From contig CAZWMG010000008.1 of assembly GCA_964634945.1 (NCBI GenBank), positions 268 to 64,267 on the forward strand: a stretch of DNA of 64,000 bases. Reading direction: 5' to 3'. The DNA comes from an uncultured Planctomycetia bacterium (GTDB lineage Bacteria > Omnitrophota > Gorgyraeia > JABMRG01). Under the pieces are notes generated by a model that made no database searches, was not told the DNA's origin, and worked only from the letters and a program-made list of their open reading frames with translations. This document shows, one piece after another, positions 2,145 through 40,626 of this stretch; position 1 is the stretch's first letter; the number at the start of each line of letters is the position of its first letter. Position numbers and translations under genes: made by a program.

Positions 2145-4286
2145 ATGAATAAGCGACTGATAATAACAGTAATCTTGACGGCAGCAGCAGCCATTACAGG
2201 CATCTGGCCTGTCTTTGCCGACCAATATACCGGCGGTACAGGTGACGGCTGGTCCGCAGCTGAATCCGCGGAGCTTGATATCGACGGGCCAGTAGTGGTT
2301 ATCTCAAGCGCCCAAAACCAGATATTCAAGGTGAGCGATTACAAAACCGCCGCAGCTGATATTACCATAACCGATTCTGCGGGAGGGGCTGTTACAGCTG
2401 CTAATGATATCAGGATTACAGTTCCTACTTCTTTTGGTGTGAAATGGAAGAGTTATTTTAGCGGCACTATCGATACTTCAGATGAGAACTTTGCCATCTT
2501 AAACCCAATAGCTGTATCAGCAAGCAATATAGACGTAACCACAGGCGCAGGCCCTTATATAATAGGTGATACTGTAACAGTAACCTGGGATAATACAGTA
2601 GCGACAGGAGACGGCGCAGGTACTGATAATGATGATGTGACAGGCGTGACATGTGATTTCTCATCAATGGAAGGCGGCGAAACAGTAACAATGTATGATG
2701 ATGGTACCAATGGAGGTGACGCTACAGCTGATGATGATATATGGACCGCAAGTTATGATATAACAGCAGGTACAGTAGATACAGCAACAGCCACAGTAGC
2801 TGTTACAGCTACAGACGGCACAAGCACAAAGACCACAGCAGACACCACAGACTTAACAGTAGATAACATAGTACCTGTATTAACAGATGGTAATATATCT
2901 ATTACATCAACCGGCTCAGGCACAGGAGGCGTTTACCTTGCAGGTGACACTGTCACAGCAGAGTGGGATGACACAGCTTCAGGCGATAACAACACAGATA
3001 CCATCTCAACAGTAACCTGTGATTTCTCTGCACTTGGTGGAGGAGCAGCAGTATCCATGACAGACTCCTCAGACACCTGGACAGCATCATATGATATAGA
3101 CAATACCTCAACCACAGGAACACACGCTGTATCATTATTAGCTACTGATAACGCGGGTAACACCACAACCACAGCAGATACAACAGACATTGAAGTAGGA
3201 GCAAGCACATTAACCCTAACATCTCCTGACCCCGGTACCACACACTCATTTAAGGCAGGTACTTCTCAAACAATAGCCTGGACAGCTGGGGGCGATACAA
3301 CAAGTGTTACCATCACTTATTCAACCAATTCCGGCGAAACCTATCCTAATACCATAACCACAGTAGCAAATTCCGCGGGAGCTAATTCCTATGATTGGAC
3401 AACAGCTTCCGATTTAAGCAGTAATGTGAGGATAAAATTGCATGACACTGATTGTTCCGCTGTTTATGACACATCGGATATTGATTTTACCATAGCCATC
3501 CCGACCCTGACTTTGTTAACGCCTTCAGCTTCAGGCATAACAATGTCCGTAGGTGACTCATATAATATTACATGGTCATCGGAAGGCGCGGTATCAGATG
3601 ACTTAAGCTTGTATTTTTCCACAAATTCAGGGACAGCTTACCCAGATACCATCTCTTCCTCAGAAGCAAATGACGGTACCTATACATGGACAGTACCCGC
3701 GGAAGCCGGGTCAGAGCTAAAAGTCAGGATACAGAATGTTTTTTATCAGGAATTGAACAATACCTCTGATGCTGATTTTGATGCCGGAACCGCTTCAAGC
3801 CTTACTGTTTCAGGCAGTGGAAGCAACGGAGCCCTTCAATTAGAAGATTATGTCTTAAGTTTTTCTCCTATGACTATTACGGATAATACAGGGGTCATTA
3901 CCGCGGCTAATGATATAAGAATAAGGATACCTTCTGCTTTTGGCATGACATGGAATACAGCGCATACTACAGCTGTTATTACAGGCAGCGCCGCGGGCAA
4001 GGTATCTACAGAAGTCAGTTACGAGTCTTCTGACAAGGTTTTAGTGCTGGATGTAATCTCGGACTTTACTGCCGGAGACGCTATTGTTGTTTCAGGGCTT
4101 GCTTTCAATAATCTTAGCGCTGTTTCATCATCGGATAATCTGGAACTGGATATATATAATACAGGGGCAACTTATATAACTGACAGCAATCATATTGAAA
4201 TTAAACCTGCTTCTTCCGCCTTGTTTATTGGCGGAACAGGTGATGGATGGGATTACGCGCAGAGCGCGGATCTGGTATTGGAGTAG
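2145..4286 (+). CDS. Secreted Thr/Asp-rich surface protein made of repeated beta-sandwich domains (713 aa)
   Basis: N-terminal signal peptide MNKRLIITVILTAAAAITGIWPVFA is followed by QYTGGTGDGWS, and the C-terminus ends FIGGTGDGWDYAQSADLVLE. Internal repeats recur (ITITDSAGGAVTAANDIRITVPTSFG ... MTITDNTGVITAANDIRIRIPSAFG) alongside YSTNSGETYP..Y.WT modules. The leader is paralogous to that of the giant gene at 8004. Confidence 0.7.
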   Translation: MNKRLIITVILTAAAAITGIWPVFADQYTGGTGDGWSAAESAELDIDGPVVVISSAQNQIFKVSDYKTAAADITITDSAGGAVTAANDIRITVPTSFGVKWKSYFSGTIDTSDENFAILNPIAVSASNIDVTTGAGPYIIGDTVTVTWDNTVATGDGAGTDNDDVTGVTCDFSSMEGGETVTMYDDGTNGGDATADDDIWTASYDITAGTVDTATATVAVTATDGTSTKTTADTTDLTVDNIVPVLTDGNISITSTGSGTGGVYLAGDTVTAEWDDTASGDNNTDTISTVTCDFSALGGGAAVSMTDSSDTWTASYDIDNTSTTGTHAVSLLATDNAGNTTTTADTTDIEVGASTLTLTSPDPGTTHSFKAGTSQTIAWTAGGDTTSVTITYSTNSGETYPNTITTVANSAGANSYDWTTASDLSSNVRIKLHDTDCSAVYDTSDIDFTIAIPTLTLLTPSASGITMSVGDSYNITWSSEGAVSDDLSLYFSTNSGTAYPDTISSSEANDGTYTWTVPAEAGSELKVRIQNVFYQELNNTSDADFDAGTASSLTVSGSGSNGALQLEDYVLSFSPMTITDNTGVITAANDIRIRIPSAFGMTWNTAHTTAVITGSAAGKVSTEVSYESSDKVLVLDVISDFTAGDAIVVSGLAFNNLSAVSSSDNLELDIYNTGATYITDSNHIEIKPASSALFIGGTGDGWDYAQSADLVLE

Positions 4287-4689: not shown

Positions 4690-4760
4690 TTTTTAGTTCA
4701 TAGGCTGTTGACTATCGACTATTGACTATCGACTTTGGACTAAAAAAGGAGGCAACCAAA

Positions 4761-6077
4761 ATGAGAAAACTTATTCGTATCTTGCTATTGACTATTGCCA
4801 TACTATGGACTGTTGACTATGGACTATCGACTGCAATAGCAAACGCCAACAACATAAGCGTGAGTAATACGGTGTTGCAGAACCAGGATGTGGAAAACTC
4901 TACTGTAGAGGTGAAATTTGACATTACATGGCAAAACTCTTTTTCCGATACAGACGGTAACGGCGCGGATTTTTATGACAGGGCATGGATATTTGTTAAA
5001 TACTGGGTGGTGGACGTGGACTCTGAAACAACCGGTTGGCACCACGCTACCTTGACTACAGGCGGCGCTGTTACGCCCACTTCTGATGGAAAAGGGGCAT
5101 TTGTTAATATCGGCGAAGACCAAACCGTAAAATGGAACTACGGCGCGGATGATATAACAGTTTCATCTAATGTAAGGGTGCGTCTTGATGCTGTTGAAAT
5201 GGTTTATATCCCCGCAGGTTCGTTTGTGTATAATTTAGCGGGCATAGGCGGTTCTACCTTTAATAACTACGGCGCAGGGTCACAGGTAACAGTTACCTCT
5301 GCCTCTGATATCCCCACAGGCGCCGCCGCAGGCTGGCCCAATGGTTATTCCGCGTTTTACATCGCCAAATATGAGGTCTCGCAAGGCCAGTACGCGGATT
5401 ACCTTAATATGCTTTCAGCCTCAGATGCCGGCTCAAGATATACAGATAATTACGACAGTTCCAGGCAGTCAGTCTCTTATACTTCAGGCAATGATTATGG
5501 CTCAAGGTACTCAGCAGGCAGGCCTGCCAGGGGCCAAAATTACCTATCCTGGGATGACTGCAGGGCATATGCATCCTGGTGCGGGTTAAGGCCTTTAACA
5601 GAGATGGAGTTTGAAAAGGCAGGCAGAGGCGGCAGTACAAGCAGTACCAATGTTTATCCATGGGGAGAGACCGCCCCCTCTTCTACTACTTATACGTTTG
5701 ATGAGGCGACAATCAGCCAGTACTACGCCTGTTATAATAATACATCAGCAGGCCCTACTGATGTGGGCCATTACCTGTCAGGTGATATAACCCGCACAGA
5801 CGCCCAGGCAGGAGCCTCGGTTTATGGCGTTACAGACTTAAGCGGAAGCCTCTGGGAGCACCTGATAAACTGTGAGCATTTATCAGTGCCCTCTGATGGA
5901 AATGGTACCCTTACCTGGCCTATAAGTTGGCCGGACGCGGCATCAGGTAAGGGCATCCGCGGTGGTAGCTGGTACAGCGTTGCTACGCACTTGCGCGTGT
6001 CGGGCCGTGGCGGCGCTGGCAGCGCGTACGCGACTCGGAGCCACCATTTTGGGTTCCGCCCGGCCAGGACTCCTTGA
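4761..6077 (+). CDS. DGR target protein 2: paralog of target 1 with a divergent N-terminal third and an identical FGE/C-type-lectin-fold C-terminus carrying the VR
   Basis: ATG at 4761 behind the RBS aaaggagg, followed by signal peptide MRKLIRILLLTIAILW. Nucleotides 5189-6115 appear identical to 1151-2077, and the last 126 nt are the VR. Confidence 0.85.
   Translation: MRKLIRILLLTIAILWTVDYGLSTAIANANNISVSNTVLQNQDVENSTVEVKFDITWQNSFSDTDGNGADFYDRAWIFVKYWVVDVDSETTGWHHATLTTGGAVTPTSDGKGAFVNIGEDQTVKWNYGADDITVSSNVRVRLDAVEMVYIPAGSFVYNLAGIGGSTFNNYGAGSQVTVTSASDIPTGAAAGWPNGYSAFYIAKYEVSQGQYADYLNMLSASDAGSRYTDNYDSSRQSVSYTSGNDYGSRYSAGRPARGQNYLSWDDCRAYASWCGLRPLTEMEFEKAGRGGSTSSTNVYPWGETAPSSTTYTFDEATISQYYACYNNTSAGPTDVGHYLSGDITRTDAQAGASVYGVTDLSGSLWEHLINCEHLSVPSDGNGTLTWPISWPDAASGKGIRGGSWYSVATHLRVSGRGGAGSAYATRSHHFGFRPARTP
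5951..6076 (+). repeat. DGR variable repeat VR2
   Basis: gggcatccgcggtggtagctggTacaGcgTtgctacgCac... compared with the TR shows substitutions (capitals) only where the TR has A, apart from a G/C difference in ccagGact versus ccagCact. Confidence 0.85.
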
Positions 6078-6126
6078 TGAGTTACACTTTGTTCTTTGAA
6101 TTTTTTACGCTTTGGAAAAAGCTCGT

Positions 6127-6913: not shown

Positions 6914-7957
6914 ATGAAAACTTACAAGCATTTATTTGAAAAGATTACGAGTTTTGAAAACTTACTGCGCGCCGCAAAACAGGCGCAGAAGGGCAAGAAG
7001 ATGAAACACAATGTTAGTGAGTTCAACTTTGGATTAGAAAGCGAAATCCTAAAATTGCAGGATGAGCTTAAGAACCAGGCCTACAGGCCCGGCCGATATA
7101 GGCATTTTTATGTTAATGACCCTAAGCGCAGGCTAATTTCTGCCGCGCCTTACAGAGACAGGGTCGTGCATCATGCCTTTTGTAATACTATAGAGCCGTT
7201 ATTTGACAGGACTTTTATATTTGACTCTTACGCTTGCCGTGTTGGAAAAGGAACGCATAAAGCTATGAGCAGGTGTCAGGAATTTATAAAGAAAAACAAA
7301 TATGTTTTACAGTGTGATATAAGCAAATACTTTTCATCTATTAACCATGGGGTTTTACTTTCTATTCTTTCCCGAAAGATTAGGGATAAAAAAGTGATGT
7401 GGCTGGCAGAGCTTATTATTAATTCAGCATTAACTGTTAATGGCTTAACAGGCATTCCTATAGGTAACCTGACAAGCCAGTTTTTTGCTAATCTTTATCT
7501 TAATGAGCTGGACTATTTTGTGAAGTTTGACTTAGGTGATAAGTGTTATCTTCGCTATATGGATGATTTCCTGATATTTAGCGAAAATAAACAGCATTTA
7601 CATCAAGCTAAAGAAAAAATTAACCAATTCTTAGAAAGCTTTTTAAAGCTTAATTTGCACCCCAAAAAATCATCGGTATTACCCATAAACTTGGGTGTAG
7701 ATTTCTGTGGTTTCCGGATTTTTAAATATTTACGTAAATTGCGAAAAAGCAATATAATGTTTTTTAAAAAAAGAGCCGTAAAGATGCAGAGAGATTTTTG
7801 CAGGCAGAAAATTAATATAAATAAAATTTCTCAATCTATAAGGGCTTGGGTCGCCCACGCTAACTGGGGAAATACTTATAGGTTGCGCGAAAAAGTAATG
7901 GAGAATTTAATTTTTAGCAGAAGTTATATGAGTACAGAAGATCGGTCTAACAGGTAA
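6914..7957 (+). CDS. DGR reverse transcriptase
   Basis: RT motifs are present in order. The DGR-specific IGNLTSQFFANLYLNELD (I/LGxxxSQ) stands in place of the group II intron QGxxxSP, and the catalytic motif is YMDDFLIF. The gene lies directly downstream of the TR. Confidence 0.9.
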   Translation: MKTYKHLFEKITSFENLLRAAKQAQKGKKMKHNVSEFNFGLESEILKLQDELKNQAYRPGRYRHFYVNDPKRRLISAAPYRDRVVHHAFCNTIEPLFDRTFIFDSYACRVGKGTHKAMSRCQEFIKKNKYVLQCDISKYFSSINHGVLLSILSRKIRDKKVMWLAELIINSALTVNGLTGIPIGNLTSQFFANLYLNELDYFVKFDLGDKCYLRYMDDFLIFSENKQHLHQAKEKINQFLESFLKLNLHPKKSSVLPINLGVDFCGFRIFKYLRKLRKSNIMFFKKRAVKMQRDFCRQKININKISQSIRAWVAHANWGNTYRLREKVMENLIFSRSYMSTEDRSNR

Positions 7958-8003
7958 ACCGGCTAACAGGTTAACCGGCTAACCAGTAGATGAGAGGTTA
8001 AAA

Positions 8004-11000
8004 ATGAATAAGCGACTGATAATAACAGTGATTTTGACAGTAGGAGTAGCCATTACAGGTATCTGGCTTGCCTTTGCGGATCAGTATACAGGCGGCGCAG
8101 GTGATGGCTGGAGTTATTCCCAGTCTCAAGATCTTCAAATGACAGGGCCTGATGTTATTTTTACTTCAGCCGAGGGCAGTGTTGGCCGTTTGGGCCAGGT
8201 GCCTTCAGGTTATTTTATTTCCGATGTTTTGGATACCAATGGCAATTCTACTTTAGGCGTCTTAAGCTGGATAGCGGATTTATCCGCGGGCGGTGAGATA
8301 AAGTTCCGAATAGCGGGCAGTGACGACAACATCACCTGGACCGATTATTTAGGCCCGGACGGCACAGCCGGAACTTATTTTACCTCTTCAGGGGAATCTA
8401 TCCCATCCGCGTTAGATGCTAAGCGTTATTTAAGATACAAGGCCTATCTTACAACAGCAGATTACACGCCTGTTTTAGACAGCGTAAGCATACAGTTTGC
8501 GGATGATAATGAAGCAAAAAGAATAATAAGTGATACCTCTGATAATAATTTTACTATCCAGACAGCCTCTATTGTTACTGCCGATGTTGAGCCTGTAAGC
8601 CTTGTAGCCGGCGTAACAGGAACTGTGGTTGTCTCGTTTACTTCTATTAACCCTATCCCCGCGGATGGCAGCATAGAGGTAACATTCCCAGTAGAATTTG
8701 ACGTAAGCGCGGTAGGAGATACCGCTTCATCATCAACAATGGACGGCTCATTAACAGTAACCGTATCAGGACAGGTGATAACTATTACCCGCAGCGGCGG
8801 TAGTGAGCAGCCGGTTGCATCAGAAAGTTTAACCTTAACCAACATTAAGAATTCCAATACTTCCGGCATAACAGGGACATACCAAATAAAGACTATTCGT
8901 TCTGACGGAAACATTATTGATGAAAAAACAGATGTTTCAGCGTCAACTATTGTATCAGCAGCTACAGCAAGTGTAACGCTTAATGCTCCTGATGATATTA
9001 CAGCAGGAGGAGCAAGAGCGGCCTATACTGTCACTCGTTATGATGAGTTTAGTAATTTAAATGATCAGGGAGCTGAGACATTCTATCTATATACTACATC
9101 ACAAGGACAGAATGTTGGGTTCTATGATGTTGTTTCCGGAGGAAGCGCGGTTACAAGCATAGATGTTGCTGATGGCACATCAGAATCTGATTTCTGGTAT
9201 TATGATGAGTTGATGGGTACATTTACTAATACTATTTCAGAGATCAATTCCGGCGCTGTATATGATGTAGGAGATAGTAGTAGTACAGATTTTGGAGATG
9301 GCACAGCATCTGGTATTGCGGTTTCAGGCTCAGGTTCTAGTGCTGAATTGGCCCTTTTAGCGAAGAACCGTTGTGGGGTGGTTTATGCAACAGATGGAAT
9401 ATATGATACCCCAGGAACTGCTAGAGGCGTTTATGTTTCCGGAAACTACGCTTATGTGGCTGATGATACGAGTGGCTTAAAAATTATTAATATCTCTAAT
9501 CCAGATTTGCCAACTCTAACTGGGACGTATGGTACTGTTGGTAATGCTCGTGGTGTTTACGTCTCCGGCGACTACGCTTATGTTACTAATCAGATTGCCC
9601 TTGAAATTATTGACATCTCCACCCCCTCTTCACCAACCTTGACTGGGAGATACGACACGTCCGGTATGCCAGTAAATGTTCATGTTCTTGGTGATTATGC
9701 CTATGTAGCTGACTGGGGTAGTGGACTTCAAATTGTTGATATCTCTACACCTTCTTCACCAAGTTTGGCAGGAACATGTGATAGTACTCGTGCAGCAGAT
9801 GTCTGTACCTCCGGTAACTATGCTTATGTTGCAGACGATACAAGCGGACTTCAAATTATAGATATTTCAAATCCTGCTTTACCTACCATTGTAGGAACTT
9901 ATGATACTGCTAATAAGGCAACTTGTGTTTATGTTTCCGGAAACTACGCTTATGTGGGTGATTATCAAGATGACTTGGTAGTTATTGACATCTCTAATCC
10001 TTCTTTGCCAAGCCTAGTCGCAACTGTTAATACTACCGGTGAGCCTAACAGCCTATATATTTCAGGTGATTATCTCTATGTTTCCGATTATTATAGAGAT
10101 GTAAAAATAGTAGATATTTCAACCCCATCTTCTCCTTTTGTAGCTACATTAGTAAAAACTGATTCAAATTATCCCCGAGGTGTTTTCGTTGCTAATGATT
10201 ATGTCTATGTAGCTGATGGTACAAGTGGTTTGCGCATCAAGGATATGACAGATTTGACGCCACCTTCTATCATTACATCTTATGATACTTCCAGTAATGC
10301 CTGGGACGTATGTGCTCTAGGTGATTATGTCTATGTAGCGGATGCGGGACATGGCCTGAAAATTATTGATATCTCTACACCTTCTTCACCAGTTTTAACT
10401 GGAACATATGATACGTCTAGTGACGCCCATGGTGTTTATGTTTTATCCGATTATGCCTATGTAGCGGATGGTTCAAATGGCCTCCAAATCATAGATGTTT
10501 CCAGCCCAGCATCGCCAACAAGGACTGGGACCTGTGATACTCCCGGTGACGCACAAAAGGTCTATCTATCTGGCAACTACGCCTATGTTGCTGATGGTTA
10601 TAGTGGTTTACAGGTGATTGATATTTCTGATTTGTCGTCGCCAACCCTAACTGGAACATATGATACTCCTGGTTTTGCCAGAGATGTTTATGTTTTAGGT
10701 GATTACGCTTACGTGGCCGATAATAGCTCTAGTGGTTTACAGATTGTTGATATTACTGATCCATCTTTGCCGAGTGCTGTTGGGTCGTATAATATTAATG
10801 ATGAGGCCCACGGTGTTTATGCCTCCGGCAATTATGCTTATGTAGTTTTTAATGGCGCAGGTTTGCATATTATCGATGTTTCCACGCCTTCTTTGCCGAC
10901 ATTAACTGGAGCGTACGATACTTCTGGCTATGGCAGAGGCGTTTATGTCTCTGGTAACAATGCTTATGTGGCAGATGATGCAAACGGTTTACAGATTATC

Positions 11001-14000
11001 GATATCTCTAACCCAGCCTTACCAGTCTTGGTGGGCATTACGGAAACTCCGGGTAGTGCCAGGGCAGTTTATATTTACGGTATTTATGCCTACGTTGCTG
11101 ATTGGAATTTTGGAATTGTCATTACTGATATTTCAGGCTATTCTTCTTCCGGCACATTTGCATCACGTATCATGGATAGCGCATCAAATGAAACATTTAG
11201 CACTGCTTCCTGGAATGGCGTTGTTCCAGCTGATACTACCTTGACTATCAAGGCCCGCACTTCTGATGATTCAGCAATGAGCGGAGCAACTGATTGGGCG
11301 AGCTGTTCAGAGCTTACAAGTGGTCAGGATATATCAGATGCAACCGGAGTAACAGACACAGATAGGTATATTCAATACTATATTGAGATGGCAACGAGTG
11401 ATGTAACAGCTACCCCGTCTCTAAGTGATATTGCATTTGATTATAGCCGCTCAGCTACAGGTGGTATCTATGATACAGATAGTCTAAATGTTAAACATGC
11501 TGCTTCGAATAAGATAGCATTTACAACAGATATCACAACTCCTCAGAAAGCAGGCGCTGTATTTACTCTGCCGGCTATCAAGGCATTGGATACATATGGT
11601 AATTTATTAAATAATGACTATGGCGCCTCTGCCTATGCAGAGACTATCACAATCAGTTACGCGCTAAGTGGCGCCTCTGATGCCCCGGATGATAATGGAA
11701 CAGACTCGTTTACTACCAATGTAGCCTTTGCCAATGGTGCGTCCACCACCTCTTTAAGTACTATTCTATACAGGGCGCAGGATACAACCGTAACTCCTTC
11801 AACAGAAGCTGCGGGATTAACGGGCCAGACAACAGAGTCTAATTCTATAACAGTAAATCCTGAAACAAAGAACAAGGTAGTATTTACGCAAGAGCCGTCC
11901 GCGACAGGAAAGATAAATTATCCATTGGATACACAGCCTATAGTTGTGATACAGGATGTTTATGGTAACCAGACAGCTGATACAGACGCGATAACTCTGT
12001 ATGACTCGAGTTCAAATGAGGTATATATGGATGCAAGCGGTACATTGTCAGCAGCATCCAATCCTTTATCAGCTACTGATGGACAAGCGGAATTCAGCAA
12101 CCTGGAATACAGTTTGCCAGGTTCTATATATCTGTATGCCGAAACCGCAGGTATTGACGCGGACTTTTCACAGCAGATAGCGCTATCAGTATCATCAACT
12201 TCTACGGTTGATGCGGCGGCAACGCCAGCGCCTGATTTTGATCTTGTACCGACTAATGATGATATAGACCATAGCTTTACTGTATTGAAGTTTAAGATTA
12301 CAGACGCGGGAGTAGATGATACCCCAACCTTGATAGACAGGATAAAGGTAGCCATATCAGGCACAGGCGCAAGCGCCGCTACTGACATAACCTGGGCAGG
12401 CCTGTATATAGGCGAGACCCAAATCACCACTGTTACAGGTGAGGCTATAGCAAATGATTATATAACATTCGGCACTCTTCCGGATGGCGATTCTAACGCT
12501 GACCTTTACAGCTTAGCTGATAACACATCCGAAGAATTTACAGTTTATATTTATATGAAAGACGGAAAACTTACAGCAACAGAGGATGATACATATATCT
12601 TTGATGTTGATGAGACATTGATAGGAGTAGATAGCGGGTTATCGTCTCAAATGGCATCCGATTCCGCAAGCGTAACTCCGGTTACAGGGACCATAGATGT
12701 TACAATCTCTTATATAGAGGCTGTAACGGCTGCCGGAAATGAAGATGTTGAATTAACAGCAGGTATTGGTAATGATATAAAGCTTCGCGGTGTTGATGTT
12801 AATAAGAACGTAGATGAGGATTATATAGGTAACCAGACATTTAAGTTCTCAGGCCTGAACCAGATAGGAGTCTATAAACCTAAGACAGACGCTACTGTAT
12901 TTGGAAACAACAAGACCATTAGTTTTACAGCAGGTGTCTCAGCGACAACGACTCTTACTGCTTACGCAAAAGAGACAGGTACTCTATCAGCCCAGGACCA
13001 GAATCACCTATCTTATGAAACATACGCGCTAAATGTTACTACTGTAGCTGCACAGGGTGATAGTATAGTTCTTACAAGCGGTAACAACCAGTCCGGCGCG
13101 ATAAACGCGGTATTATCACAGGAGTTTATAGCTACTGTATCTGATGCTTATGCAAACCCTGCCACGGGTGAGGTTGTTGAATTTGCGGTAGATACAGCCC
13201 CTAATGGAGCAAGCGGCCAGAGCCTGAGCCAGCCGCAGGATGACACTGACGATGACGGCTTGGCATCTGTTCTCTTTACTCTGGGCAATGTAGCGGGAGA
13301 CTATTTGATTACCGCAACTTGCGGTAGCATAACAGGGTCTCCATTGACTTATACCGCGACAGCTTTAGAGCCTACAGGACTAAATATAGCAAGCGGCAAT
13401 AATCAGGTTGACAAAAAGGTTGCAGAGGATCTTAATCCTTTTGTTGTGGAACATACAGCCTCCGGCGATATACCTGTTCCTAACGTGGATATTGATTTTG
13501 AGATTATAAGTTTTCCTGATGGGGCTACCGGACAGTCATTGTCAGCGTCAAGCGCTACAACCAATTCAAATGGCCAGGCGACGGCCACCCTTACCCTTGG
13601 CACGAAGATAGGCAGTTATGTTGTGCGCGCTAGTGTTGGAGCGTTTAGTGTTGATTTCACAGCGACCGCTCTTCCTGAGACGCCTAATAAAATAATACTT
13701 TCAGGCCCTAGTTCCGTAGCGGCAGGAGGCGTATCAGAAAGCTTTTCAATATATATAAAGGATACATATGATAATTTAAGCGGCGTAACAAGCGCCACCA
13801 CAATTGGTGCGTCGAGTAGCGCAAGCGCTACATCAAGCTTTTATAGCGACTCGCTCGGTGAAAGCCTTCTCGTAGATGATAGTATATTGTTAAGCATTGA
13901 TACCCATAGCGCTACTTTCTATTACAAGGACACGCTGGTTGGCGTTCCGACAGTTACGGTATCTGTAACGAGCGGACAGGCAGGACTGAATACCGATAAT

Positions 14001-17000
14001 AATAATTCCGGTATCAGTGTTATACCGGGTGGCATACATAGCTTTAAGGTTACAGGTTCAACATCGGCTATGGTTGTCGGAGGAAGCCGTGAGATTACCG
14101 TAACAGCGTATGATGTCCATGATAACGTAAAGACCAATTATAATGGTGATATAAATGTAATATTCTCAGGCGTTGCAGTCTCTCCATCTGCTCAAGCTCC
14201 AACATGTTCTGATAAGGATTCAAATGATATAGCTGTTGGCAGTTCAACTACACTTACATTCTCATCAGGCGTTGCCACAACCACTCTAAAGCCTTATAAG
14301 GCAGAGGAAGTTGCAATAAAGGCTACAGCAGGTGCTGTTACAACAGCTTCTGATAGTGACCTTGAATTTGTTGTGCGCCACGGCGCGCACGACCACCTAA
14401 AATTCGCCGCTAATCTGCCTACTCCGCAGATAGCAGGTAGTGAATTTACATTAGAGACCACCATTGATGTTGTTGATATCTATGCAAATGTATGCGATGG
14501 CGCGAATGGCGCCACTGCATATGCTCAGACAGACAAGACTGTCACATGGACTCTAAGCGGCGAAGCTAACGGCCCCTTAAGCGGAACAGATACATTTACA
14601 AATCCTATTTCATTTAGCGCTGGGCATTCAGTGAATACCTTAATCGCTACTTTATACCGCGCTCAGAATACTACAATAACTCCAAGTGTTGTTGGTCTAA
14701 GCGGAACTAATGAGGCATCCAATACAGTAGTTGTTGCAGGAGGAGAGGTTAATAAGATCCGATATACGCAGCAGCCTTCAGCTACATGTATTACTACTCA
14801 AGCCCTGGCTCAACAGCCGCATGTAGCAATATCTGATGCGTATGGTAATGATGTAATATCAGCAGAAGGAAATATCTCTTTGGCAGCATCAACAACAACC
14901 GGCACATTTACACCTGTTGCAAACGGCACCTTAAGTGCCGCGTCATTGAGTTTAGCGCTGTCATCAGGCGCGGCGGACTTTAGCGAAGTAACCTATAACT
15001 ATCCTGAGAATATCTATATAAGAGCCTCAATATCCGGATATGAGCTGAATAATATCTATTCTTCATTAATAGCCTTCTCAACCGCTGATGAGGCTACTAT
15101 ATCAGCAGGGGCACTATCAGAGCCTTCATCTATCTCATCCTTGTCTGATAACGTGCTTGAGTTAACAGACGTCTTTGATTTTAAGGTTACTGACGGCGGG
15201 ACAGATGGGTATGCTACAAAGGTAAAACAGATAGTTATTACTCAGTCGGCGAATAACACAGCTGAAAGCTGGACAGACTATATCCAGGGCGCGTATATAA
15301 CAGACGGCACAACACAGATATTAGCTATTGTTGAAGAGACAATGCTTGTATTTGGAAGTGGATCAAGTATTATTTATTCTATAAGCAATGGCAGTCATAA
15401 GACATTTACATTGAAGGTATATCTAAAACCCACATTGCCGGCAGGAGCTGATGGCAAGGTAATCGGTTTTAGCGTTGATGCCGATACTTATATAGTTTTA
15501 CATAATTTGAGCTCGCAATTCCCTACAACCTCACCTCTTAGCACAGAGCCTGAGGTAGCTGTTGTGGCTACTAATTTTACGGTTACAGGTGACGCTACAA
15601 TGCTTGCGGGGACTTCAAATACGCTTACCCTGACAGCCGTAGATGCTAATGGCAACAAGGATAAGGATTATACGGGTGATAAGGCATTAGTCTTTAGCGG
15701 AGCTAATGTGTCAACAAATGGAAATAACCCTACGTGCACTTCATTTAGCGGTGCGGATATTGATTTTGCTGACAATACGATAATTACGTTTGTCGATGGA
15801 GTTAACTCATCGACTATTACCATGAAGCTTTATAAAGCAGAAACAGTTTCTGTAAGAGCAGGAGACGGGACACTGGTTACCGCATTAGCTGACGCTCTTC
15901 AGGTTACGGTTTCAGGTGGTACAGCATCAGACCTTCTATGGGGTACCGAACCCGGAACAGTCGCCGTGGCCAATGCGCCATGGAAGGAATTTACTGTAAA
16001 TGTCACTGATGCTTATGGTAATATCGCCTCAAGTGACGCTGATGTGACTATCAGTGCATCGGGTGGGACATTGGCGGATTCTGCTACAGCAGTAGTTGCC
16101 GCGTCATCAGGTGTCGCGACCTTCAGGAATTTTGCTGTTACATGTTCAAGCTATCCAGGTATAGTAGAGATTACAGGCGAATCAGACGGGGTAACGCCAA
16201 CACCGGCATCTAGTTCTGTAACTGTCGCGGAGAAATATTCAGTAACAGTCAATGTCAATGATTATACGAGTGGTGCAGCCCTTACGGAGCTTGCGTTTGA
16301 TCTTCTCTCAGACGCTGGTGTTACAATGTCTAGTGAAGGATTCCCAATGACCGGAAACAGCCCGTTTGAGTTTGAGTTGCCTTATGGCACATATACATTG
16401 TCATTCGAAAAAGAACAATATATGGCACACAGCACAGAGAAGATAGCTGGAGTGGCTGCCGATGCACTCGATGGAACATATGATAACGATATAAGCTGGA
16501 CAGTTATAGTATCATCCTTAGCAGAGGCTACGGCAGATTATAATGTAAAGAGCGGTATTACCTATGATGAGACTACCGATAGGCTTACTCTGCGTCTCTG
16601 GATTGAAAAGCGCGGCAAGATGATACTTAATGATGACGTAAATAAGCTGGGCCCTGCTACTATTGAAATTTATGACGATGCGACTTCTCAATGGCTAAGC
16701 GCTATAAGCCTTACACCGCCTAGCTTAACGAATACGACATCAGGCCTATATTACAAAGTTGTCAGTAACGTTAGCAGTGGAGGCACACCGGCACTAGTCG
16801 AGGGAAAGACATACTTTGCCAGTTGTAAGATAAATTATGGCGGCCTTGACGGAACAGGCAGGCTTTATGAGGGCGGCACGACATTTGCTCTTACTGTAAG
16901 CCAGAGTCTAAAGGCCGTAACTGAAGGCATTGAAATCATGACCGATGATATCAAGGCTGAGGTAACAGGGGTTACGCAATCAGTATCTGATCAGGCTGCC

Positions 17001-18107
17001 GCTACCCAGGCAGTTATTGTTGCCCAAACCGCTTCTACGCAATCAGCCATTGCAACGGGCACCGCCGCTACCCAGGCCGCTGTAGCAACAGGCACCGCCG
17101 CTACCCAGGCCGCTGTAGCAACAGGCACAGCCGCTACCCAGGCCGCTGTAGCATCCGGCACCGCCGCTAACCAGACCGCTATAACTACCATAGGTTCTAA
17201 TCTGGCTTCAAGCGTTGCCGCGACAGAAGAGGTATTAGCGGCGAGGTCAAAGTTAGAGGGCGCTTCAAGCATATTAAATCGGCAGAGCGCTATTCGTAAC
17301 AACGACACTATGGTTATAAGATACCAGACAAATACAGGGCTCGCCCCTGTAATAAGCGTATATGATCCGACCCATGATGAACGGATAGAGAGCGAGCTGA
17401 TGACAGAGACGATACCCGGAATTTCAGGGGTATATGAATACGAGGTTAAATTTATATGGGGGCTTGGTGAACATACTGTTGTCTGCAAAGAAGAGACCAC
17501 AGGCACCCTTGACGGTATGAATGTACAGGTTATCTCAACAGACTTAGAGGATATCTCAGGCTCGCTAACTACTGCTACAGCTACCTTGCAAGGTATCGAT
17601 ACAGATGAATTAGGAGGATTAAGCGTGAGGGTAGCGGATATTAATACATACGTCAGTCAGATGGTCAGTACCATTGACAAACTTTCCGCGTTAAAAGAGA
17701 AGACAACAGACCTGGCGACAGATGCTAGTGATGTTATCTATAAGCAGTTAGAGGTTGCAACGCAGAAGCTCAAAGAGATAAATGAGGGCCAGGGCATCAA
17801 GATAGAAAAGATGTATGACCTTAGTGAAGAACAGTCTGTGGATACAGATTACATCAAGAATAAGGCACTAGAGATCAAGGCATTAGTTGAACTTAGCCAG
17901 GATATCTTAGAAAAGACAGATGATACGCCTATTATGAAGAGCTGGTTAGAATCAGACGATGAATACGCATACCAAGGTGAAGAAGAATATGAAGAACAGG
18001 ACCATACATTAGAACAGGATCAAGAACAGGATCTGGAAGAGGCCCCGGCGCAGGATCAAGAACAGGATCTGGAAGAGGCCCCGGCGCAGGATCAAGAACA
18101 GGAGTAA
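8004..18107 (+). CDS. Giant secreted or cell-surface protein (3367 aa) with an LVIVD beta-propeller repeat region, many Ig-like domains and a C-terminal coiled-coil/acidic tail
   Basis: Signal peptide MNKRLIITVILTVGVAITGIWLAFADQYTGGAGDGW. About 15 tandem LVIVD-type repeats (YAYVADDTSGLQIIDIS.P..P...GTYDT.G.A.GVYVSG.) span nt ~9380-11150. Long Thr/Ser/Ala-rich beta-domain repeats follow. A coding 33-bp tandem (TGTAATQAAVA x4) lies at ~17020-17185, followed by a coiled-coil segment and a C-terminal 36-bp x2 repeat encoding QDQEQDLEEAPA. Confidence 0.85.
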   Translation: MNKRLIITVILTVGVAITGIWLAFADQYTGGAGDGWSYSQSQDLQMTGPDVIFTSAEGSVGRLGQVPSGYFISDVLDTNGNSTLGVLSWIADLSAGGEIKFRIAGSDDNITWTDYLGPDGTAGTYFTSSGESIPSALDAKRYLRYKAYLTTADYTPVLDSVSIQFADDNEAKRIISDTSDNNFTIQTASIVTADVEPVSLVAGVTGTVVVSFTSINPIPADGSIEVTFPVEFDVSAVGDTASSSTMDGSLTVTVSGQVITITRSGGSEQPVASESLTLTNIKNSNTSGITGTYQIKTIRSDGNIIDEKTDVSASTIVSAATASVTLNAPDDITAGGARAAYTVTRYDEFSNLNDQGAETFYLYTTSQGQNVGFYDVVSGGSAVTSIDVADGTSESDFWYYDELMGTFTNTISEINSGAVYDVGDSSSTDFGDGTASGIAVSGSGSSAELALLAKNRCGVVYATDGIYDTPGTARGVYVSGNYAYVADDTSGLKIINISNPDLPTLTGTYGTVGNARGVYVSGDYAYVTNQIALEIIDISTPSSPTLTGRYDTSGMPVNVHVLGDYAYVADWGSGLQIVDISTPSSPSLAGTCDSTRAADVCTSGNYAYVADDTSGLQIIDISNPALPTIVGTYDTANKATCVYVSGNYAYVGDYQDDLVVIDISNPSLPSLVATVNTTGEPNSLYISGDYLYVSDYYRDVKIVDISTPSSPFVATLVKTDSNYPRGVFVANDYVYVADGTSGLRIKDMTDLTPPSIITSYDTSSNAWDVCALGDYVYVADAGHGLKIIDISTPSSPVLTGTYDTSSDAHGVYVLSDYAYVADGSNGLQIIDVSSPASPTRTGTCDTPGDAQKVYLSGNYAYVADGYSGLQVIDISDLSSPTLTGTYDTPGFARDVYVLGDYAYVADNSSSGLQIVDITDPSLPSAVGSYNINDEAHGVYASGNYAYVVFNGAGLHIIDVSTPSLPTLTGAYDTSGYGRGVYVSGNNAYVADDANGLQIIDISNPALPVLVGITETPGSARAVYIYGIYAYVADWNFGIVITDISGYSSSGTFASRIMDSASNETFSTASWNGVVPADTTLTIKARTSDDSAMSGATDWASCSELTSGQDISDATGVTDTDRYIQYYIEMATSDVTATPSLSDIAFDYSRSATGGIYDTDSLNVKHAASNKIAFTTDITTPQKAGAVFTLPAIKALDTYGNLLNNDYGASAYAETITISYALSGASDAPDDNGTDSFTTNVAFANGASTTSLSTILYRAQDTTVTPSTEAAGLTGQTTESNSITVNPETKNKVVFTQEPSATGKINYPLDTQPIVVIQDVYGNQTADTDAITLYDSSSNEVYMDASGTLSAASNPLSATDGQAEFSNLEYSLPGSIYLYAETAGIDADFSQQIALSVSSTSTVDAAATPAPDFDLVPTNDDIDHSFTVLKFKITDAGVDDTPTLIDRIKVAISGTGASAATDITWAGLYIGETQITTVTGEAIANDYITFGTLPDGDSNADLYSLADNTSEEFTVYIYMKDGKLTATEDDTYIFDVDETLIGVDSGLSSQMASDSASVTPVTGTIDVTISYIEAVTAAGNEDVELTAGIGNDIKLRGVDVNKNVDEDYIGNQTFKFSGLNQIGVYKPKTDATVFGNNKTISFTAGVSATTTLTAYAKETGTLSAQDQNHLSYETYALNVTTVAAQGDSIVLTSGNNQSGAINAVLSQEFIATVSDAYANPATGEVVEFAVDTAPNGASGQSLSQPQDDTDDDGLASVLFTLGNVAGDYLITATCGSITGSPLTYTATALEPTGLNIASGNNQVDKKVAEDLNPFVVEHTASGDIPVPNVDIDFEIISFPDGATGQSLSASSATTNSNGQATATLTLGTKIGSYVVRASVGAFSVDFTATALPETPNKIILSGPSSVAAGGVSESFSIYIKDTYDNLSGVTSATTIGASSSASATSSFYSDSLGESLLVDDSILLSIDTHSATFYYKDTLVGVPTVTVSVTSGQAGLNTDNNNSGISVIPGGIHSFKVTGSTSAMVVGGSREITVTAYDVHDNVKTNYNGDINVIFSGVAVSPSAQAPTCSDKDSNDIAVGSSTTLTFSSGVATTTLKPYKAEEVAIKATAGAVTTASDSDLEFVVRHGAHDHLKFAANLPTPQIAGSEFTLETTIDVVDIYANVCDGANGATAYAQTDKTVTWTLSGEANGPLSGTDTFTNPISFSAGHSVNTLIATLYRAQNTTITPSVVGLSGTNEASNTVVVAGGEVNKIRYTQQPSATCITTQALAQQPHVAISDAYGNDVISAEGNISLAASTTTGTFTPVANGTLSAASLSLALSSGAADFSEVTYNYPENIYIRASISGYELNNIYSSLIAFSTADEATISAGALSEPSSISSLSDNVLELTDVFDFKVTDGGTDGYATKVKQIVITQSANNTAESWTDYIQGAYITDGTTQILAIVEETMLVFGSGSSIIYSISNGSHKTFTLKVYLKPTLPAGADGKVIGFSVDADTYIVLHNLSSQFPTTSPLSTEPEVAVVATNFTVTGDATMLAGTSNTLTLTAVDANGNKDKDYTGDKALVFSGANVSTNGNNPTCTSFSGADIDFADNTIITFVDGVNSSTITMKLYKAETVSVRAGDGTLVTALADALQVTVSGGTASDLLWGTEPGTVAVANAPWKEFTVNVTDAYGNIASSDADVTISASGGTLADSATAVVAASSGVATFRNFAVTCSSYPGIVEITGESDGVTPTPASSSVTVAEKYSVTVNVNDYTSGAALTELAFDLLSDAGVTMSSEGFPMTGNSPFEFELPYGTYTLSFEKEQYMAHSTEKIAGVAADALDGTYDNDISWTVIVSSLAEATADYNVKSGITYDETTDRLTLRLWIEKRGKMILNDDVNKLGPATIEIYDDATSQWLSAISLTPPSLTNTTSGLYYKVVSNVSSGGTPALVEGKTYFASCKINYGGLDGTGRLYEGGTTFALTVSQSLKAVTEGIEIMTDDIKAEVTGVTQSVSDQAAATQAVIVAQTASTQSAIATGTAATQAAVATGTAATQAAVATGTAATQAAVASGTAANQTAITTIGSNLASSVAATEEVLAARSKLEGASSILNRQSAIRNNDTMVIRYQTNTGLAPVISVYDPTHDERIESELMTETIPGISGVYEYEVKFIWGLGEHTVVCKEETTGTLDGMNVQVISTDLEDISGSLTTATATLQGIDTDELGGLSVRVADINTYVSQMVSTIDKLSALKEKTTDLATDASDVIYKQLEVATQKLKEINEGQGIKIEKMYDLSEEQSVDTDYIKNKALEIKALVELSQDILEKTDDTPIMKSWLESDDEYAYQGEEEYEEQDHTLEQDQEQDLEEAPAQDQEQDLEEAPAQDQEQE

Positions 18108-18204
18108 TGAACAAGTGCAAAGTGCAAGGCAGATTCTTAAGTTTACATTTCGGGCATTACCTACCTGTCGGTAAGTAAGCACCATTTTGTAAATTTAAGA
18201 ATAT

Positions 18205-18258: not shown

Positions 18259-18999
18259 ATGAAAAAAAGATGGATATTAACAGCTTTAATGGTAATTATA
18301 TTTTCATTCTTAGCGCAGGAGGCGGAATGCGGCATTACCTTAAAGGCCTTGGTGGTAAATCCTTCCAAGACAAAGACGCAGACAGCCCAACTTAAGGCCT
18401 ATCTGCCAAAAGAGGCATCTGCGGACGATGTTATCGATTTGGGGGATTTAAAGATAGACTATGATATTGAGAAAGGCCTTTATTTTGTGCATCAGAAATA
18501 CAAGCTTAAACCGGGAGAGAGTATAAGCCGTGAGATAGAGATAAAAGATGTATGGGTGATATCAAAGGCAGAAATAGATGATCTTACCCGCCAGGCAGCG
18601 GATCTAGCCGAAAGGCTTAAAGGTACAGCCTATTTTAATATGGCGGTTACGTTGCAAAAAGATATTGAAAGCAAGGCGGAAGAGATTATGAATAGGCAGG
18701 AAAAGGCCTTAAATGCCAATCCCCGTGCGCATATAGGCGCCTATAGAAGCAATATGAATACGCTTGATGAGACTACGGCCTCTCTGGCAAAATTAGAGAA
18801 GATGGTCGAAGAGCTGCAGGAAGATAAAGGTTCAGGCTCAGAAAAGATTCACGTTAAGGCCACATGGCGGCTCATTGTAGCCATGGTTGTTGCGTTAGGC
18901 GTTCTCTCATTTATATTCTTTGTCATATGGAATCGTCAGGCTGCGGTAGAAGGAGCCAAGCGCAAAGCTGAGCAAGGTGATAAGAAAATTAGCTTCTAA
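18259..18999 (+). CDS. Hypothetical membrane-anchored protein with an N-terminal signal/TM segment, a coiled-coil middle and a C-terminal TM helix
   Basis: MKKRWILTALMVIIFSFLA at the N-terminus and LIVAMVVALGVLSFIFFVIW near the C-terminus. No recognisable catalytic motifs. Confidence 0.55.
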   Translation: MKKRWILTALMVIIFSFLAQEAECGITLKALVVNPSKTKTQTAQLKAYLPKEASADDVIDLGDLKIDYDIEKGLYFVHQKYKLKPGESISREIEIKDVWVISKAEIDDLTRQAADLAERLKGTAYFNMAVTLQKDIESKAEEIMNRQEKALNANPRAHIGAYRSNMNTLDETTASLAKLEKMVEELQEDKGSGSEKIHVKATWRLIVAMVVALGVLSFIFFVIWNRQAAVEGAKRKAEQGDKKISF

Positions 19000-19067
19000 C
19001 TTTACAAAATAGTGCAATACTCAAAATGTAAAGTTAGCGCTTAACTTTACAAATAGGAAAATAGTGC
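18996..19067. repeat. REP-like palindromic element plus a partial second copy, overlapping the stop codon of the upstream gene
   Basis: ctaactttacaaaatagtgcaatactcaaaatgtaaagttag has 11-bp arms (ctaactttaca / tgtaaagttag). Near-identical copies occur at 40119-40162 and 40583-40626. Confidence 0.7.
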
Positions 19068-19988
19068 ATGGATGTTTCTGACCTGATTAGAAAAGGCAAG
19101 ATTAGCAGGTTATTTCGCGCCAGGAATAAGATCAGTTTTCCCGACGCGATATGTCATATTACCCAGCATGCCGCAGGAAAGGAAAAATTATTTTCAGAAG
19201 ACTCAGATTATTTGTACATGCTGCACCTTCTCAAGGCAGTAGCAGAGAAGTATAAAATCGATATTTTTTCTTTTGCCTTTCTCCCCAACCACTTACACAT
19301 CTTGCTTCAATTATCAGACGACAATCTCTCTTTGGCGATGAAAAGCCTGTTTGAGAGCTATGCTAAGTTTTACAATAATAAATATAACAGGAAAGGCCAT
19401 TTATTCTGCGGCTCATTCAGGCAGGCCCTCTGTTTTAGCGATAGTTATCTTTTGGCCATATCTTTGTATATACACATAAATGCTGTTAAGGCAAGGCTGG
19501 TTAATCGGCCTGAGGATTACCGCTGGTCATCCTGCGCGTTATATTCATCCGCTTTTAATAAAAAGACATTTGTTAACTATAAATTCATTCTAGAGAGCCT
19601 GGATGAGGATTTGGCAAACGCGCGAAAGATCTATTCTGCATTATTGCGTAGCTCAGAAAAGGTAAAAACAGAAGAGGTTAGGGTAGATATCAGGGCATTG
19701 GAATCTTTTAAAACAAGGGCAATGGAGTTTTTTCCGGCTTTAGTAAAGCGTACAGGCAGAGATGCCCCAGGTTTTTTAGAAGATGAGAAATTAGAGGAAG
19801 CGGTGTTGCAATTAAGGCAGATGGGAAGGTTGTCTACTCCTGAGAGCTTTACAGCGCGCAAGAATTTGATTGAGCAACTGAAGGCAAGAGGCTATACAAT
19901 AAAGGTTATAGGCCAAATGCTGGGCATATCCAGACAAGCGATATACAAGACGCTTAAGTTGACAAATTCTGCAATGCACAAAATGTAA
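19068..19988 (+). CDS. REP-associated tyrosine transposase (RAYT; IS200/IS605-like Y1 HUH transposase domain) with a C-terminal HTH extension
   Basis: HUH motif in LPNHLHILL. Family pattern YNRKGHLFCGSFRQ....YIHINAVKARLVNRPEDYRWSS carries the catalytic Tyr. The C-terminal GYTIKVIGQMLGISRQAIYKTLK is a helix-turn-helix. The gene is flanked on both sides by REP-like palindromes. Confidence 0.7.
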   Translation: MDVSDLIRKGKISRLFRARNKISFPDAICHITQHAAGKEKLFSEDSDYLYMLHLLKAVAEKYKIDIFSFAFLPNHLHILLQLSDDNLSLAMKSLFESYAKFYNNKYNRKGHLFCGSFRQALCFSDSYLLAISLYIHINAVKARLVNRPEDYRWSSCALYSSAFNKKTFVNYKFILESLDEDLANARKIYSALLRSSEKVKTEEVRVDIRALESFKTRAMEFFPALVKRTGRDAPGFLEDEKLEEAVLQLRQMGRLSTPESFTARKNLIEQLKARGYTIKVIGQMLGISRQAIYKTLKLTNSAMHKM

Positions 19989-20056
19989 ACTTAAGCGTTA
20001 AGTTGACAAATTCTGCAATGCACAAAATGTAAACAAAATGTAAAGTTAAGCGTTAA
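19953..20056. repeat. REP-like direct repeats overlapping the RAYT stop (aagttgacaaattctgcaatgcacaaaatgtaaac x2 plus aaaatgtaaagttaagcgttaa)
   Basis: Tandem copies are visible. They share the aaaatgtaaagtta core with the REP at 18996. Confidence 0.65.
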
Positions 20057-20102
20057 TTTAGTGGCTGAATTAGGATTTAGTGGTTGATTTAGAATTTCGT
20101 AT

Positions 20103-40123: not shown

Positions 40124-40162
40124 CTTTACAAAAAAGTGCAATACTCAAAATGTAAAGTTAGG
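40119..40162. repeat. REP-like palindrome (copy 2) overlapping the glnS stop codon
   Basis: cctaactttacaaaaaagtgcaatactcaaaatgtaaagttagg. Together with the upstream aaaaagg it forms a 51-bp perfect direct repeat with 40576-40626. Confidence 0.7.
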
Positions 40163-40242: not shown

Positions 40243-40528
40243 GAGAAAAGGAAGGGGAGGCCATAATAGGGCCTGAGAGTTCTGCTAATAGCAGATTACC
40301 CATAGAACCTGATCCACCTTTACTTTTTACAATAGCAGATATTGTTTTCAAGCCAAGGTGGACTCGCTGCTTTCGGTGTTCGGTATCAGATGATAGGTTA
40401 TCGCAAAGATTTGTGTTGCCACAAACGATAACCGAATATTAAAAACCAATAACCGAGAAAGCGGGTCTGGATAATGCCAGCGCAGGGAGGATAATATCTT
40501 ACCCATGCTTTCGGCATGGGTTTTTTGC
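40243..40528 (+). ncRNA. TPP (THI-box) riboswitch-like leader with an atypical ~165-nt insertion or duplication, ending in an intrinsic terminator
   Basis: THI-box elements are in the expected order: ggggaggcc...CTGAGAg...tACCCataGAACCTGATCca at 40255-40316 and gggtCTGGATAATGCCAGCGcAGGGAgg at 40463-40490. The terminator cccatgctttcggcatgggTTTTTT lies at 40502-40526. The leader sits upstream of thiE. Confidence 0.5.
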
Positions 40529-40582: not shown

Positions 40583-40626
40583 CCTAACTTTACAAAAAAG
40601 TGCAATACTCAAAATGTAAAGTTAGG
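40583..40626. repeat. REP-like palindrome (copy 3) just upstream of thiE
   Basis: Identical to 40119-40162. Confidence 0.7.

Follow-up and report, generated by a model that had tools for sequence, protein, structure and literature searches.

The 64,000-nt window analyzed here (contig CAZWMG010000008.1 of assembly GCA_964634945.1, positions 268–64,267 of the forward strand; all coordinates below are window positions unless a locus is named) carries a gene for a 306-aa protein with a Y1 HUH domain, flanked by short hairpin-forming palindromes. We interpret this locus, with a probability of about 0.8, as a REPtron-like unit, in which the gene for a Y1 HUH nuclease of the RAYT type (repetitive extragenic palindrome, or REP, associated tyrosine transposase) is inherited vertically, is probably present in one copy, and is bracketed by its cognate hairpins of ~40 nt. 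Within this known class of bacterial repeat systems, it represents a new family. An earlier reading made from the sequence alone (hereafter the sequence-only reading) had proposed a domesticated REP-associated Y1 transposase that disperses its hairpin. This proposal is supported by the Y1_Tnp profile match, by RAYT as the best-matching model, by a fold close to that of 4ER8, by the flanking hairpins, by copy numbers in relatives, and by synteny. The gene and the protein features that bear on this interpretation are as follows.

19068–19988, plus strand: RAYT-like Y1 HUH gene with a C-terminal helix-turn-helix (HTH), 306 aa.
19290–19298, plus strand: codons of the HUH motif, H75-L76-H77 (CAC TTA CAC), invariant in 24/24 homologs and aligned with H59-M-H61 of 4ER8 (PMC3479197).
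19467–19481, plus strand: Y134-I-H-I-N138, the probable catalytic tyrosine and metal-ligand asparagine (the 'Y---NP' motif), from the alignment to 4ER8.
19518–19532, plus strand: YRWSS (aa 151–155), the apparent 'serine motif', downstream of the catalytic tyrosine and not the nucleophile, from conservation and the 4ER8 alignment.
19848–19982, plus strand: predicted three-helix C-terminal HTH, approximately aa 261–305, from sub-threshold Pfam matches and AlphaFold helices.

The open reading frame (ORF) of 306 aa that had been reported is present at 19068–19988 on the plus strand, and its HUH motif reads NHLHIL (H75-L-H77). Its earlier assignment to the Y1 transposase family held up in a profile search, with Pfam Y1_Tnp (PF01797) matching aa 29–136 at 33.6 bits against a cut-off of 23. 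The only substantial NCBIfam match was the RAYT equivalog (REP_Tyr_transpos, NF047646) at 63.4 bits, and the IS200 model (NF033573) scored 13.1 bits against a cut-off of 55. An AlphaFold model of the protein (predicted local distance difference test score, pLDDT, of 78) was searched with Foldseek, and the best match in the PDB was 4er8_A (E = 3.7e-5, target-normalized TM-score 0.68, root-mean-square deviation 2.4 Å), which is E. coli TnpA-REP bound to REP (PMC3479197). The IS608 and ISDra2 TnpA proteins ranked after it. Comparison with the PDB by sequence was weak (E = 0.12–0.35 for 4er8), and the fold search alone was decisive. We found ~190 homologs of ~300 aa, mostly in metagenome-assembled genomes (MAGs) of Omnitrophota, Elusimicrobia, and Deltaproteobacteria, while a profile search returned 2,134 cluster representatives at E ≤ 1e-30.

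The catalytic residues are conserved in the homologs compared. Across 24 homologs with 42–62% identity, H75, H77, Y134, H136, N138, Y151, W153, and S154 do not vary, and R152 is almost invariant. The profile-to-4ER8 alignment places H75/H77 on H59/H61, Y134 and N138 on Y115 and N119, and YRWSS on W132-P-F-S135; at the position of 4ER8 H123, the homologs have a nearly invariant alanine. In TnpA-REP, Y115 is the catalytic tyrosine and N119 is a metal ligand (PMC3479197), and 'Y---NP' is the signature of class-2 TnpA-Y1 proteins (PMC6006769). Because Y134 and N138 align with Y115 and N119 within this class-2 signature, the catalytic tyrosine is most probably Y134, which lies in the motif YIHINA in the window protein and YIHLNP in the family consensus. 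The sequence-only reading had instead taken YRWSS as the catalytic-tyrosine region. The alignment does not bear this out, and the tyrosine of YRWSS was rejected as the nucleophile in favor of Y134 (PMC3479197). [quoted passage not shown]

The C-terminal HTH that had also been claimed was borne out at approximately aa 261–305. Three helices are modeled there by AlphaFold (261–273, 278–285, and 289–305), and the best Pfam HTH match falls just below its cut-off (HTH_23, 23.8 bits vs 24.6). The matches of the C-terminus to HTH_28 (19.7 bits), HTH_11, and HTH_7 were all sub-threshold, and at the profile level resolvase and LuxR-type HTHs matched weakly. Many of the homologs have a recorded HTH_23, HTH_7, or HTH_11.

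The second component of the system is the hairpin. The copies identified in the window, given without strand, are listed below.

18137–18198: long-interior variant hairpin after the giant ORF that lies upstream, with arms TTAAGTTTACA / TGTAAATTTAA (one G-T pair) and a 40-nt interior.
18996–19037 (42 nt): full hairpin of the dispersed type, whose 11-nt arms, CTAACTTTACA / TGTAAAGTTAG, are exact and enclose an interior of 20 nt.
19039–19067: half copy, consisting of the left arm CGCTTAACTTTACA and part of the interior, running into the ATG and complementary to 20038–20051.
19951–19998: gene-proximal diverged hairpin, CGCTTAAGTTGACA-19 nt-TGTAAACTTAAGCG, with one G/A mismatch.
19995–20051: second tandem proximal copy at a spacing of 44, disrupted by an 11-nt internal duplication and ending in TGTAAAGTTAAGCG.
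40119–40162: full hairpin, in which TAA at 40121–40123 is the stop codon of glnS (38444–40123).
40583–40626: full hairpin, intergenic, 14 nt upstream of thiE (40641).

The sequence-only reading described the gene as flanked by palindromes with 11-bp arms. This is correct upstream (18996–19037), where TAA at 18997–18999 is also the stop codon of the ORF at 18259–18999, and incorrect downstream, where the flank holds a hairpin of the diverged type plus a disrupted copy. The diverged hairpin at 19951–19998 spans the last 12 codons and the stop of the RAYT-like gene and has a folding energy of −13 to −14 kcal/mol as single-stranded DNA (ssDNA); the copy at 19995–20051 folds no better than shuffles. 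The final right arm, TGTAAAGTTAAGCG, is the only match of the downstream flank to the upstream half copy and is the exact complement of 19039–19052, and the gene is bracketed by an inverted repeat of 14–21 nt. It was observed that 19031–19051 and 20039–20059 are 90% complementary, while 19007–19054 and 19964–20011 are 77% identical. The nearly identical palindromes that had been reported at 40119–40162 and 40583–40626 are present, mutually identical over 44 nt with 12-nt arms, and they differ from the 18996 copy by a single interior base. Their reported position at or overlapping stop codons applies to the 18996 and 40119 copies and not to the 40583 copy, which is intergenic before thiE. As ssDNA, the full copies fold with −9.4 to −9.9 kcal/mol (z = −3.2 to −5.0), and an Rfam search returned no family for the hairpin. 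As a separate observation, the two identical copies bracket a thiamine pyrophosphate (TPP) riboswitch-like element (40243–40505) upstream of thiE (40641–41291). This element is apparently split by an insert of ~130 nt in its P3 region, and for that reason RF00059 matches it below threshold and in two pieces (25.1 and 19.1 bits vs 54.3).

The idea that chance, or merely an AT-rich sequence of low complexity, produced these palindromes repeatedly has next to no probability. One count leans in its direction, as the 9-mer AACTTTACA with one mismatch allowed is marginally enriched in the window (33 vs 22 expected). The longer units are far outside chance levels: the 26-nt palindrome core occurs three times in the window with 0 matches in 100 shuffles, the 20-nt degenerate core occurs six times vs 0.15 expected, and the 22 specified bases of the palindrome are found again at 164 or more sites of the sequence examined. 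The core counts and the spread of the foot over at least 117 loci, described below, refute chance recurrence.

To place the pairing of gene and hairpin in the wider family, the flanks of homologs were fetched, and two further homologous genes were taken from pattern-scan loci. Each of the 13 homologous genes examined, at 12 loci, has flanking hairpins of its own type. In the window and in the loci L103, L113, L119, and L121–L126, a hairpin of ~33–55 nt lies within ~70 nt upstream of the ATG, and a second one overlaps or directly follows the stop; in L127/L132, the gene likewise has its own hairpin type. With a strict definition of the hairpin, 13 of the 39 hairpins found in 201 kb fall in the ~1.4% of the sequence that adjoins the ends of RAYT-like genes. 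The hairpin sequences vary by lineage (CTAACTTTACA, AATGTTACA, AAGTTGACA, ATGAAACA, ATTACACA, TTGGACA, and TTACCG), with AATGTTACA as the foot in L119, and the ...ACA / TGT... junction between the outer and the inner stem is kept in every Omnitrophota-type hairpin. Positions 1–8 of the outer stem are paired in 24–27 of 27 hairpin types, with 2–6 standard pair types per position, and inner positions 3–8 are paired in 21–25 of them. Because the stems covary across the 27 hairpin types, the structure of the hairpin is maintained beyond its sequence.

The pairing is also seen between paralogs. A Deltaproteobacteria contig (L135) carries two copies of the gene, at 2884–3807 and 7935–8858, 5 kb apart and with 52% amino acid identity, and each has a separate hairpin type (TTACCC...GGGTAA vs TTACCG...CGGTAA). 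For REPtrons, it is a known rule that a gene and its own repeat are specifically paired (PMC6006769). The L135 paralogs sit in an island rich in toxin-antitoxin genes. In L119, the orthologous 3' hairpin also encodes ...NSAMQKM and the stop codon, and another hairpin (7223–7259) lies at the stop of its giant ORF, a position equivalent to that of the window hairpin at 18137–18198.

We evaluated the dispersal of the hairpin in a scan that took a single genome from each species and looked for the exact foot, CTAACTTTACA...TGTAAAGTTAG, with an interior of 16–24 nt. The exact foot was found in at least 117 loci of at least 16 species-level MAGs, and the palindrome is not unique to the window. Within 595 kb of the MAG CAYPYS, 119 copies are exact and at least 264 are near-exact, ~1 per 2.3 kb. 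L119, which is syntenic with the window, carries its own hairpin five times in 14.4 kb, for the most part where genes end. In a position matrix built from 118 oriented copies, the borders are sharp, with conservation ending one base beyond each side. The element starts with CTAA and ends with TTAG, and both are base-paired. Copies from a single genome have almost uniform interiors; the interiors of different genomes are distinct and show compensating changes. In comparisons of orthologous sites, some were shared, and others were filled in one genome and empty in another. At the cleanest site (L075:4867 vs L042), the inserted unit is the whole 39–41-nt palindrome, with no duplication and no pre-existing CTAA. 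A role for CTAA as a pre-existing target is unsupported, given one clean empty site without CTAA and other empty sites too diverged to read. When metagenomes were scanned once for the hairpin of the window itself, one copy turned up, in an unrelated contig of 13.6 kb. At 4915–4957 of L118 (metagenome contig Ga0307929_1002086), the window hairpin including its interior is present with one 1-nt deletion, in a contig that is otherwise dissimilar. CAYPYS also has a classic RAYT of 163 aa (L012, 3330–3958, on CAYPYS010000001.1), which scores 116.6 bits on the RAYT model, above its cut-off, and has a GTAG-type REP, GTAGGGGAGCCTTAAGGCTCCCCTAC, on either side. It makes up a second, canonical REP/RAYT system in a genome with hundreds of CTAACTTTACA hairpins.

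The copies are concentrated at stop codons. Among the matches listed (L001–L118 and the window), 76 of 164 hairpins with the CTAACTTTACA foot include the stop of an ORF that is at least 150 codons long, and 62 of these 76 stops are the element's first TAA (positions 2–4), where equal use of the frames would give one third (p = 7e-18). In CAYPYS, 58 of 119 hairpins contain a long-ORF stop codon and 20 more are within 20 nt of one; the 39-nt element of this MAG has stop codons in every frame of either strand. The bias could mean that insertion is directed in register with stop codons, or else that there is strong selection against other insertions. The tendency of the hairpins to provide stop codons bears on the annotation of gene ends and on assembly breaks in these MAGs.

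This clustering at gene 3' ends could also be expected if the hairpins were host cis-elements, such as mRNA 3'-end stabilizers, terminators, or operators for an HTH, with the Y1-HTH protein as a regulator, a processing nuclease, or an unrelated neighbor and not the agent that multiplies them. The identity of the outer stem over many species, as for a protein-binding site, and the DNA-binding type of HTH in the protein fit such a role, and E. coli REPs are known to act on mRNA (PMC3733652). We nonetheless consider it unlikely. Interiors that are uniform within genomes and different between them indicate concerted evolution, which points to recent intragenomic copying. The element borders are sharp, and some orthologous sites are filled in one genome and empty in another. 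The catalytic HUH and tyrosine residues are invariant, and each RAYT lineage has its own hairpin type beside it, including the two paralogs on one contig. No T-run follows any hairpin, no terminator-like site was scored around the RAYT-like gene, and promoter-like sites there showed no excess. The hairpins were rejected as intrinsic terminators or promoters on these grounds. The REPtron-like interpretation would leave room for a later-acquired host function.

The gene itself is at a stable locus. The window and L119 are collinear over the giant ORF (56% identity), a 246-aa ORF (50%), the RAYT-like gene (61%), the peptidase gene (54%), and the ATP synthase genes. The RAYT-like gene has thus kept its place, and at 61% identity against 50–56% it is evolving no faster than its neighbors. 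In the window, the giant ORF encodes 3,367 aa (8004–18107) with many short repeats (YAYVAD-type and others), the 246-aa ORF (18259–18999) precedes the RAYT-like gene, and the peptidase gene follows it. There is one copy of the RAYT-like gene in the 64-kb window. The two copies in L135, at 52% identity, are not recent duplicates, and the 34 index blocks with P0114 represent essentially one locus in many samples, among which L132 alone differs in its flanking genes. Homologs are also found inside housekeeping operons, for example between purD-like (GARS) and purE-like (AIRC) genes. Between the last hairpin arm and the peptidase gene, there are two tandem copies of a 19-nt unit, ATTTAGTGGCTGAATTAGG, at 20056–20093.

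These data bear on whether the gene and its flanking hairpins form an autonomous insertion sequence of the IS200/IS605 type, with the solo hairpins as derivatives resembling miniature inverted-repeat transposable elements. The Y1_Tnp domain would be expected in such an element, as would hairpins at both ends together with the 14–21-nt inverted repeat bracketing the gene, and many homologs are on contigs of ~950 bp that end just past the gene, as happens when repeats break assemblies. We consider this very unlikely, since the IS200 model scored only 13.1 bits against its cut-off of 55, the same locus is found in L119 with neighboring genes equally diverged, and the window has a single gene copy. 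The sole two copies found on the same contig are the 52%-identical paralogs, and both ends of the unit are the solo palindrome instead of distinct left and right ends. Many homologs, as a related observation, were on contigs of ~930–1,000 bp that hold this gene alone, which suggests that short-read assemblies are routinely broken at the RAYT-like locus by the hairpin repeats on its flanks.

Several observations weigh against the REPtron-like interpretation. The RAYT equivalog score of 63.4 bits is under the curated 80-bit cut-off, and four homologs likewise fall below it (52.6–72.1 bits). The sequence-only reading had proposed to check for a conserved 5' GT(A/T)G-type tetranucleotide adjacent to the palindromes, and the matrix of 118 oriented copies contains no GTAG / GT[AG]G tag or conserved flank; known exceptions to GTAG are classes 2.6 and 3 (PMC6006769). 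No long RAYT-like gene was found in the hairpin-rich MAG CAYPYS, where a search of 595 kb, the smaller part of that genome, returned only the classic short RAYT with its own REP. The orientation of the hairpins relative to gene direction is unbiased (22 vs 28). Within the window, the hairpin interior is weak, with an inner stem of 3 bp set in a large internal loop, there are only three full copies in 64 kb (~1 per 21 kb), and the copies in the 3' flank are of the diverged type, one of them disrupted.

Among known systems, the closest in mode of working is the REPtron, represented by E. coli TnpA-REP (RayT/YafM, 4ER8) with its REP/BIME repeats and by the RAYT-REPIN systems of Pseudomonas. The shared features are the Y1 HUH fold with the HUH motif and the Y---NP tyrosine, a vertically inherited, probably low-copy gene flanked by a hairpin repeat, dispersal of the repeat in extragenic space (here clear in relatives and probable for the source genome), a hairpin type specific to the protein lineage, and absence of target duplication (here at one clean insertion site). 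In contrast to the 165 aa of 4ER8, the window protein has 306 aa with a ~100-aa linker and the C-terminal HTH; it is under the NCBIfam RAYT cut-off, and its counterpart of 4ER8 H123 is replaced by an almost invariant alanine. Its hairpins lack an unpaired 5' GTAG, those within the window are singlets and not inverted doublets (REPINs/BIMEs), and an identical 11-bp foot is common to many species. By analogy, we take the system to work like a REPtron, as described for the known cases (PMC3333891, PMC3479197, PMC8266576).

In its protein architecture, the system appears to match the TIRYT proteins of TIRtrons (Di Nocera et al. 2013, PMC3733652), or subclass 2.1 of TnpA-Y1 (Quentin et al. 2018, PMC6006769), a likeness in domain content. 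These proteins share the length class, a C-terminal domain of the HTH_23/HTH_28/DnaA_C type, and the serine motif. Inverted repeats also bracket their genes and can reach into the 3' end of the coding sequence; some of these repeats are self-complementary and form repeat families, at moderate abundance (Di Nocera et al., PMC3733652). The compact REP-like hairpin of our system, by contrast, also occurs solo and is very dense in the relative CAYPYS. The TIRYT motif GGGGWSAS occurs nine times in the window, which is chance level, and never within 8 kb of the gene; it was rejected as a feature of the gene flanks. No REP-like sequences were reported near subclass 2.1 genes (Quentin et al., PMC6006769).

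Two other groups are less similar. IS200/IS605 elements (IS608, ISDra2) share the Y1 HUH fold, subterminal ssDNA hairpins as recognition elements, and insertion without duplication. Our gene differs from them in being syntenic between species and not multi-copy (one in the window), in its low score on the IS200 model (13.1 vs 55 bits), in having the same palindrome at both ends, and in its extra HTH domain. The class 3 TnpA-Y1 proteins (e.g., Solibacter usitatus, PMC6006769) have similarly atypical flanking hairpins that lack GTAG and reach hundreds of copies per genome, yet they have Y----Q and a CnGA foot, where the present family has Y---N(P/A) and a paired CTAA/TTAG foot.

Working from E. 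coli TnpA-REP and the IS200/IS605 TnpA proteins, we infer catalysis, a single-stranded substrate, and a role for the HTH. The hairpin would form on transiently single-stranded DNA. The N-terminal Y1 domain would then bind it, with His75 and His77 (together with Asn138) holding a metal ion, and Tyr134 would cut the foot of the hairpin through a 5'-phosphotyrosine intermediate. Strand transfer would copy the entire ~40-nt palindrome to new sites without target duplication, and the copies that survive would be mostly those at gene 3' ends. We propose that the C-terminal HTH additionally recognizes duplex DNA in a sequence-specific manner, the simplest target being the conserved outer stem (...ACA/TGT...). 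Alternatively, it might serve autoregulation of the gene through the flanking palindromes.

A broader reading, which we offer tentatively and consider rather doubtful as a whole, is that the HTH-bearing RAYT-like branch is a REP-mobilizing family widespread in Omnitrophota and their neighbors, characterized jointly by a duplex-reading HTH, hairpins in register with stop codons, and high copy number. For the first part, the HTH may read the outer stem sequence-specifically, which would explain why the same 11-bp foot is found across genomes whose proteins are 42–47% identical while the inner stem covaries freely. Second, the hairpins may insert or persist in such a way that their own TAA (bases 2–4) ends the upstream gene. 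The third part is that copy number may rise to one element per 2–3 kb in a small genome.

The best example of a population of short mobile hairpins kept up by a domesticated transposase is found in REP/RAYT systems, and they have been studied almost only in Proteobacteria; our literature search found no paper naming both Omnitrophota and extragenic palindromes. With the present case, the range of this kind of system comes to include uncultivated Omnitrophota-type genomes as well as the long branch of the family that bears an HTH. Published surveys reported no REP-like hairpins beside the genes of that branch, whereas the genes described here do have them. One conserved foot combined with many covarying interiors also provides a natural comparison set for the hairpin features that such enzymes read.

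Finally, one observation concerns a different part of the window. A 927-nt block is exactly identical at 1151–2077 and 5189–6115, within a 1,220-nt stretch at 93% identity, and lies inside two paralogous ORFs (732–2039 and 4722–6077). This identity could reflect recent gene conversion, duplication, or an assembly artifact.

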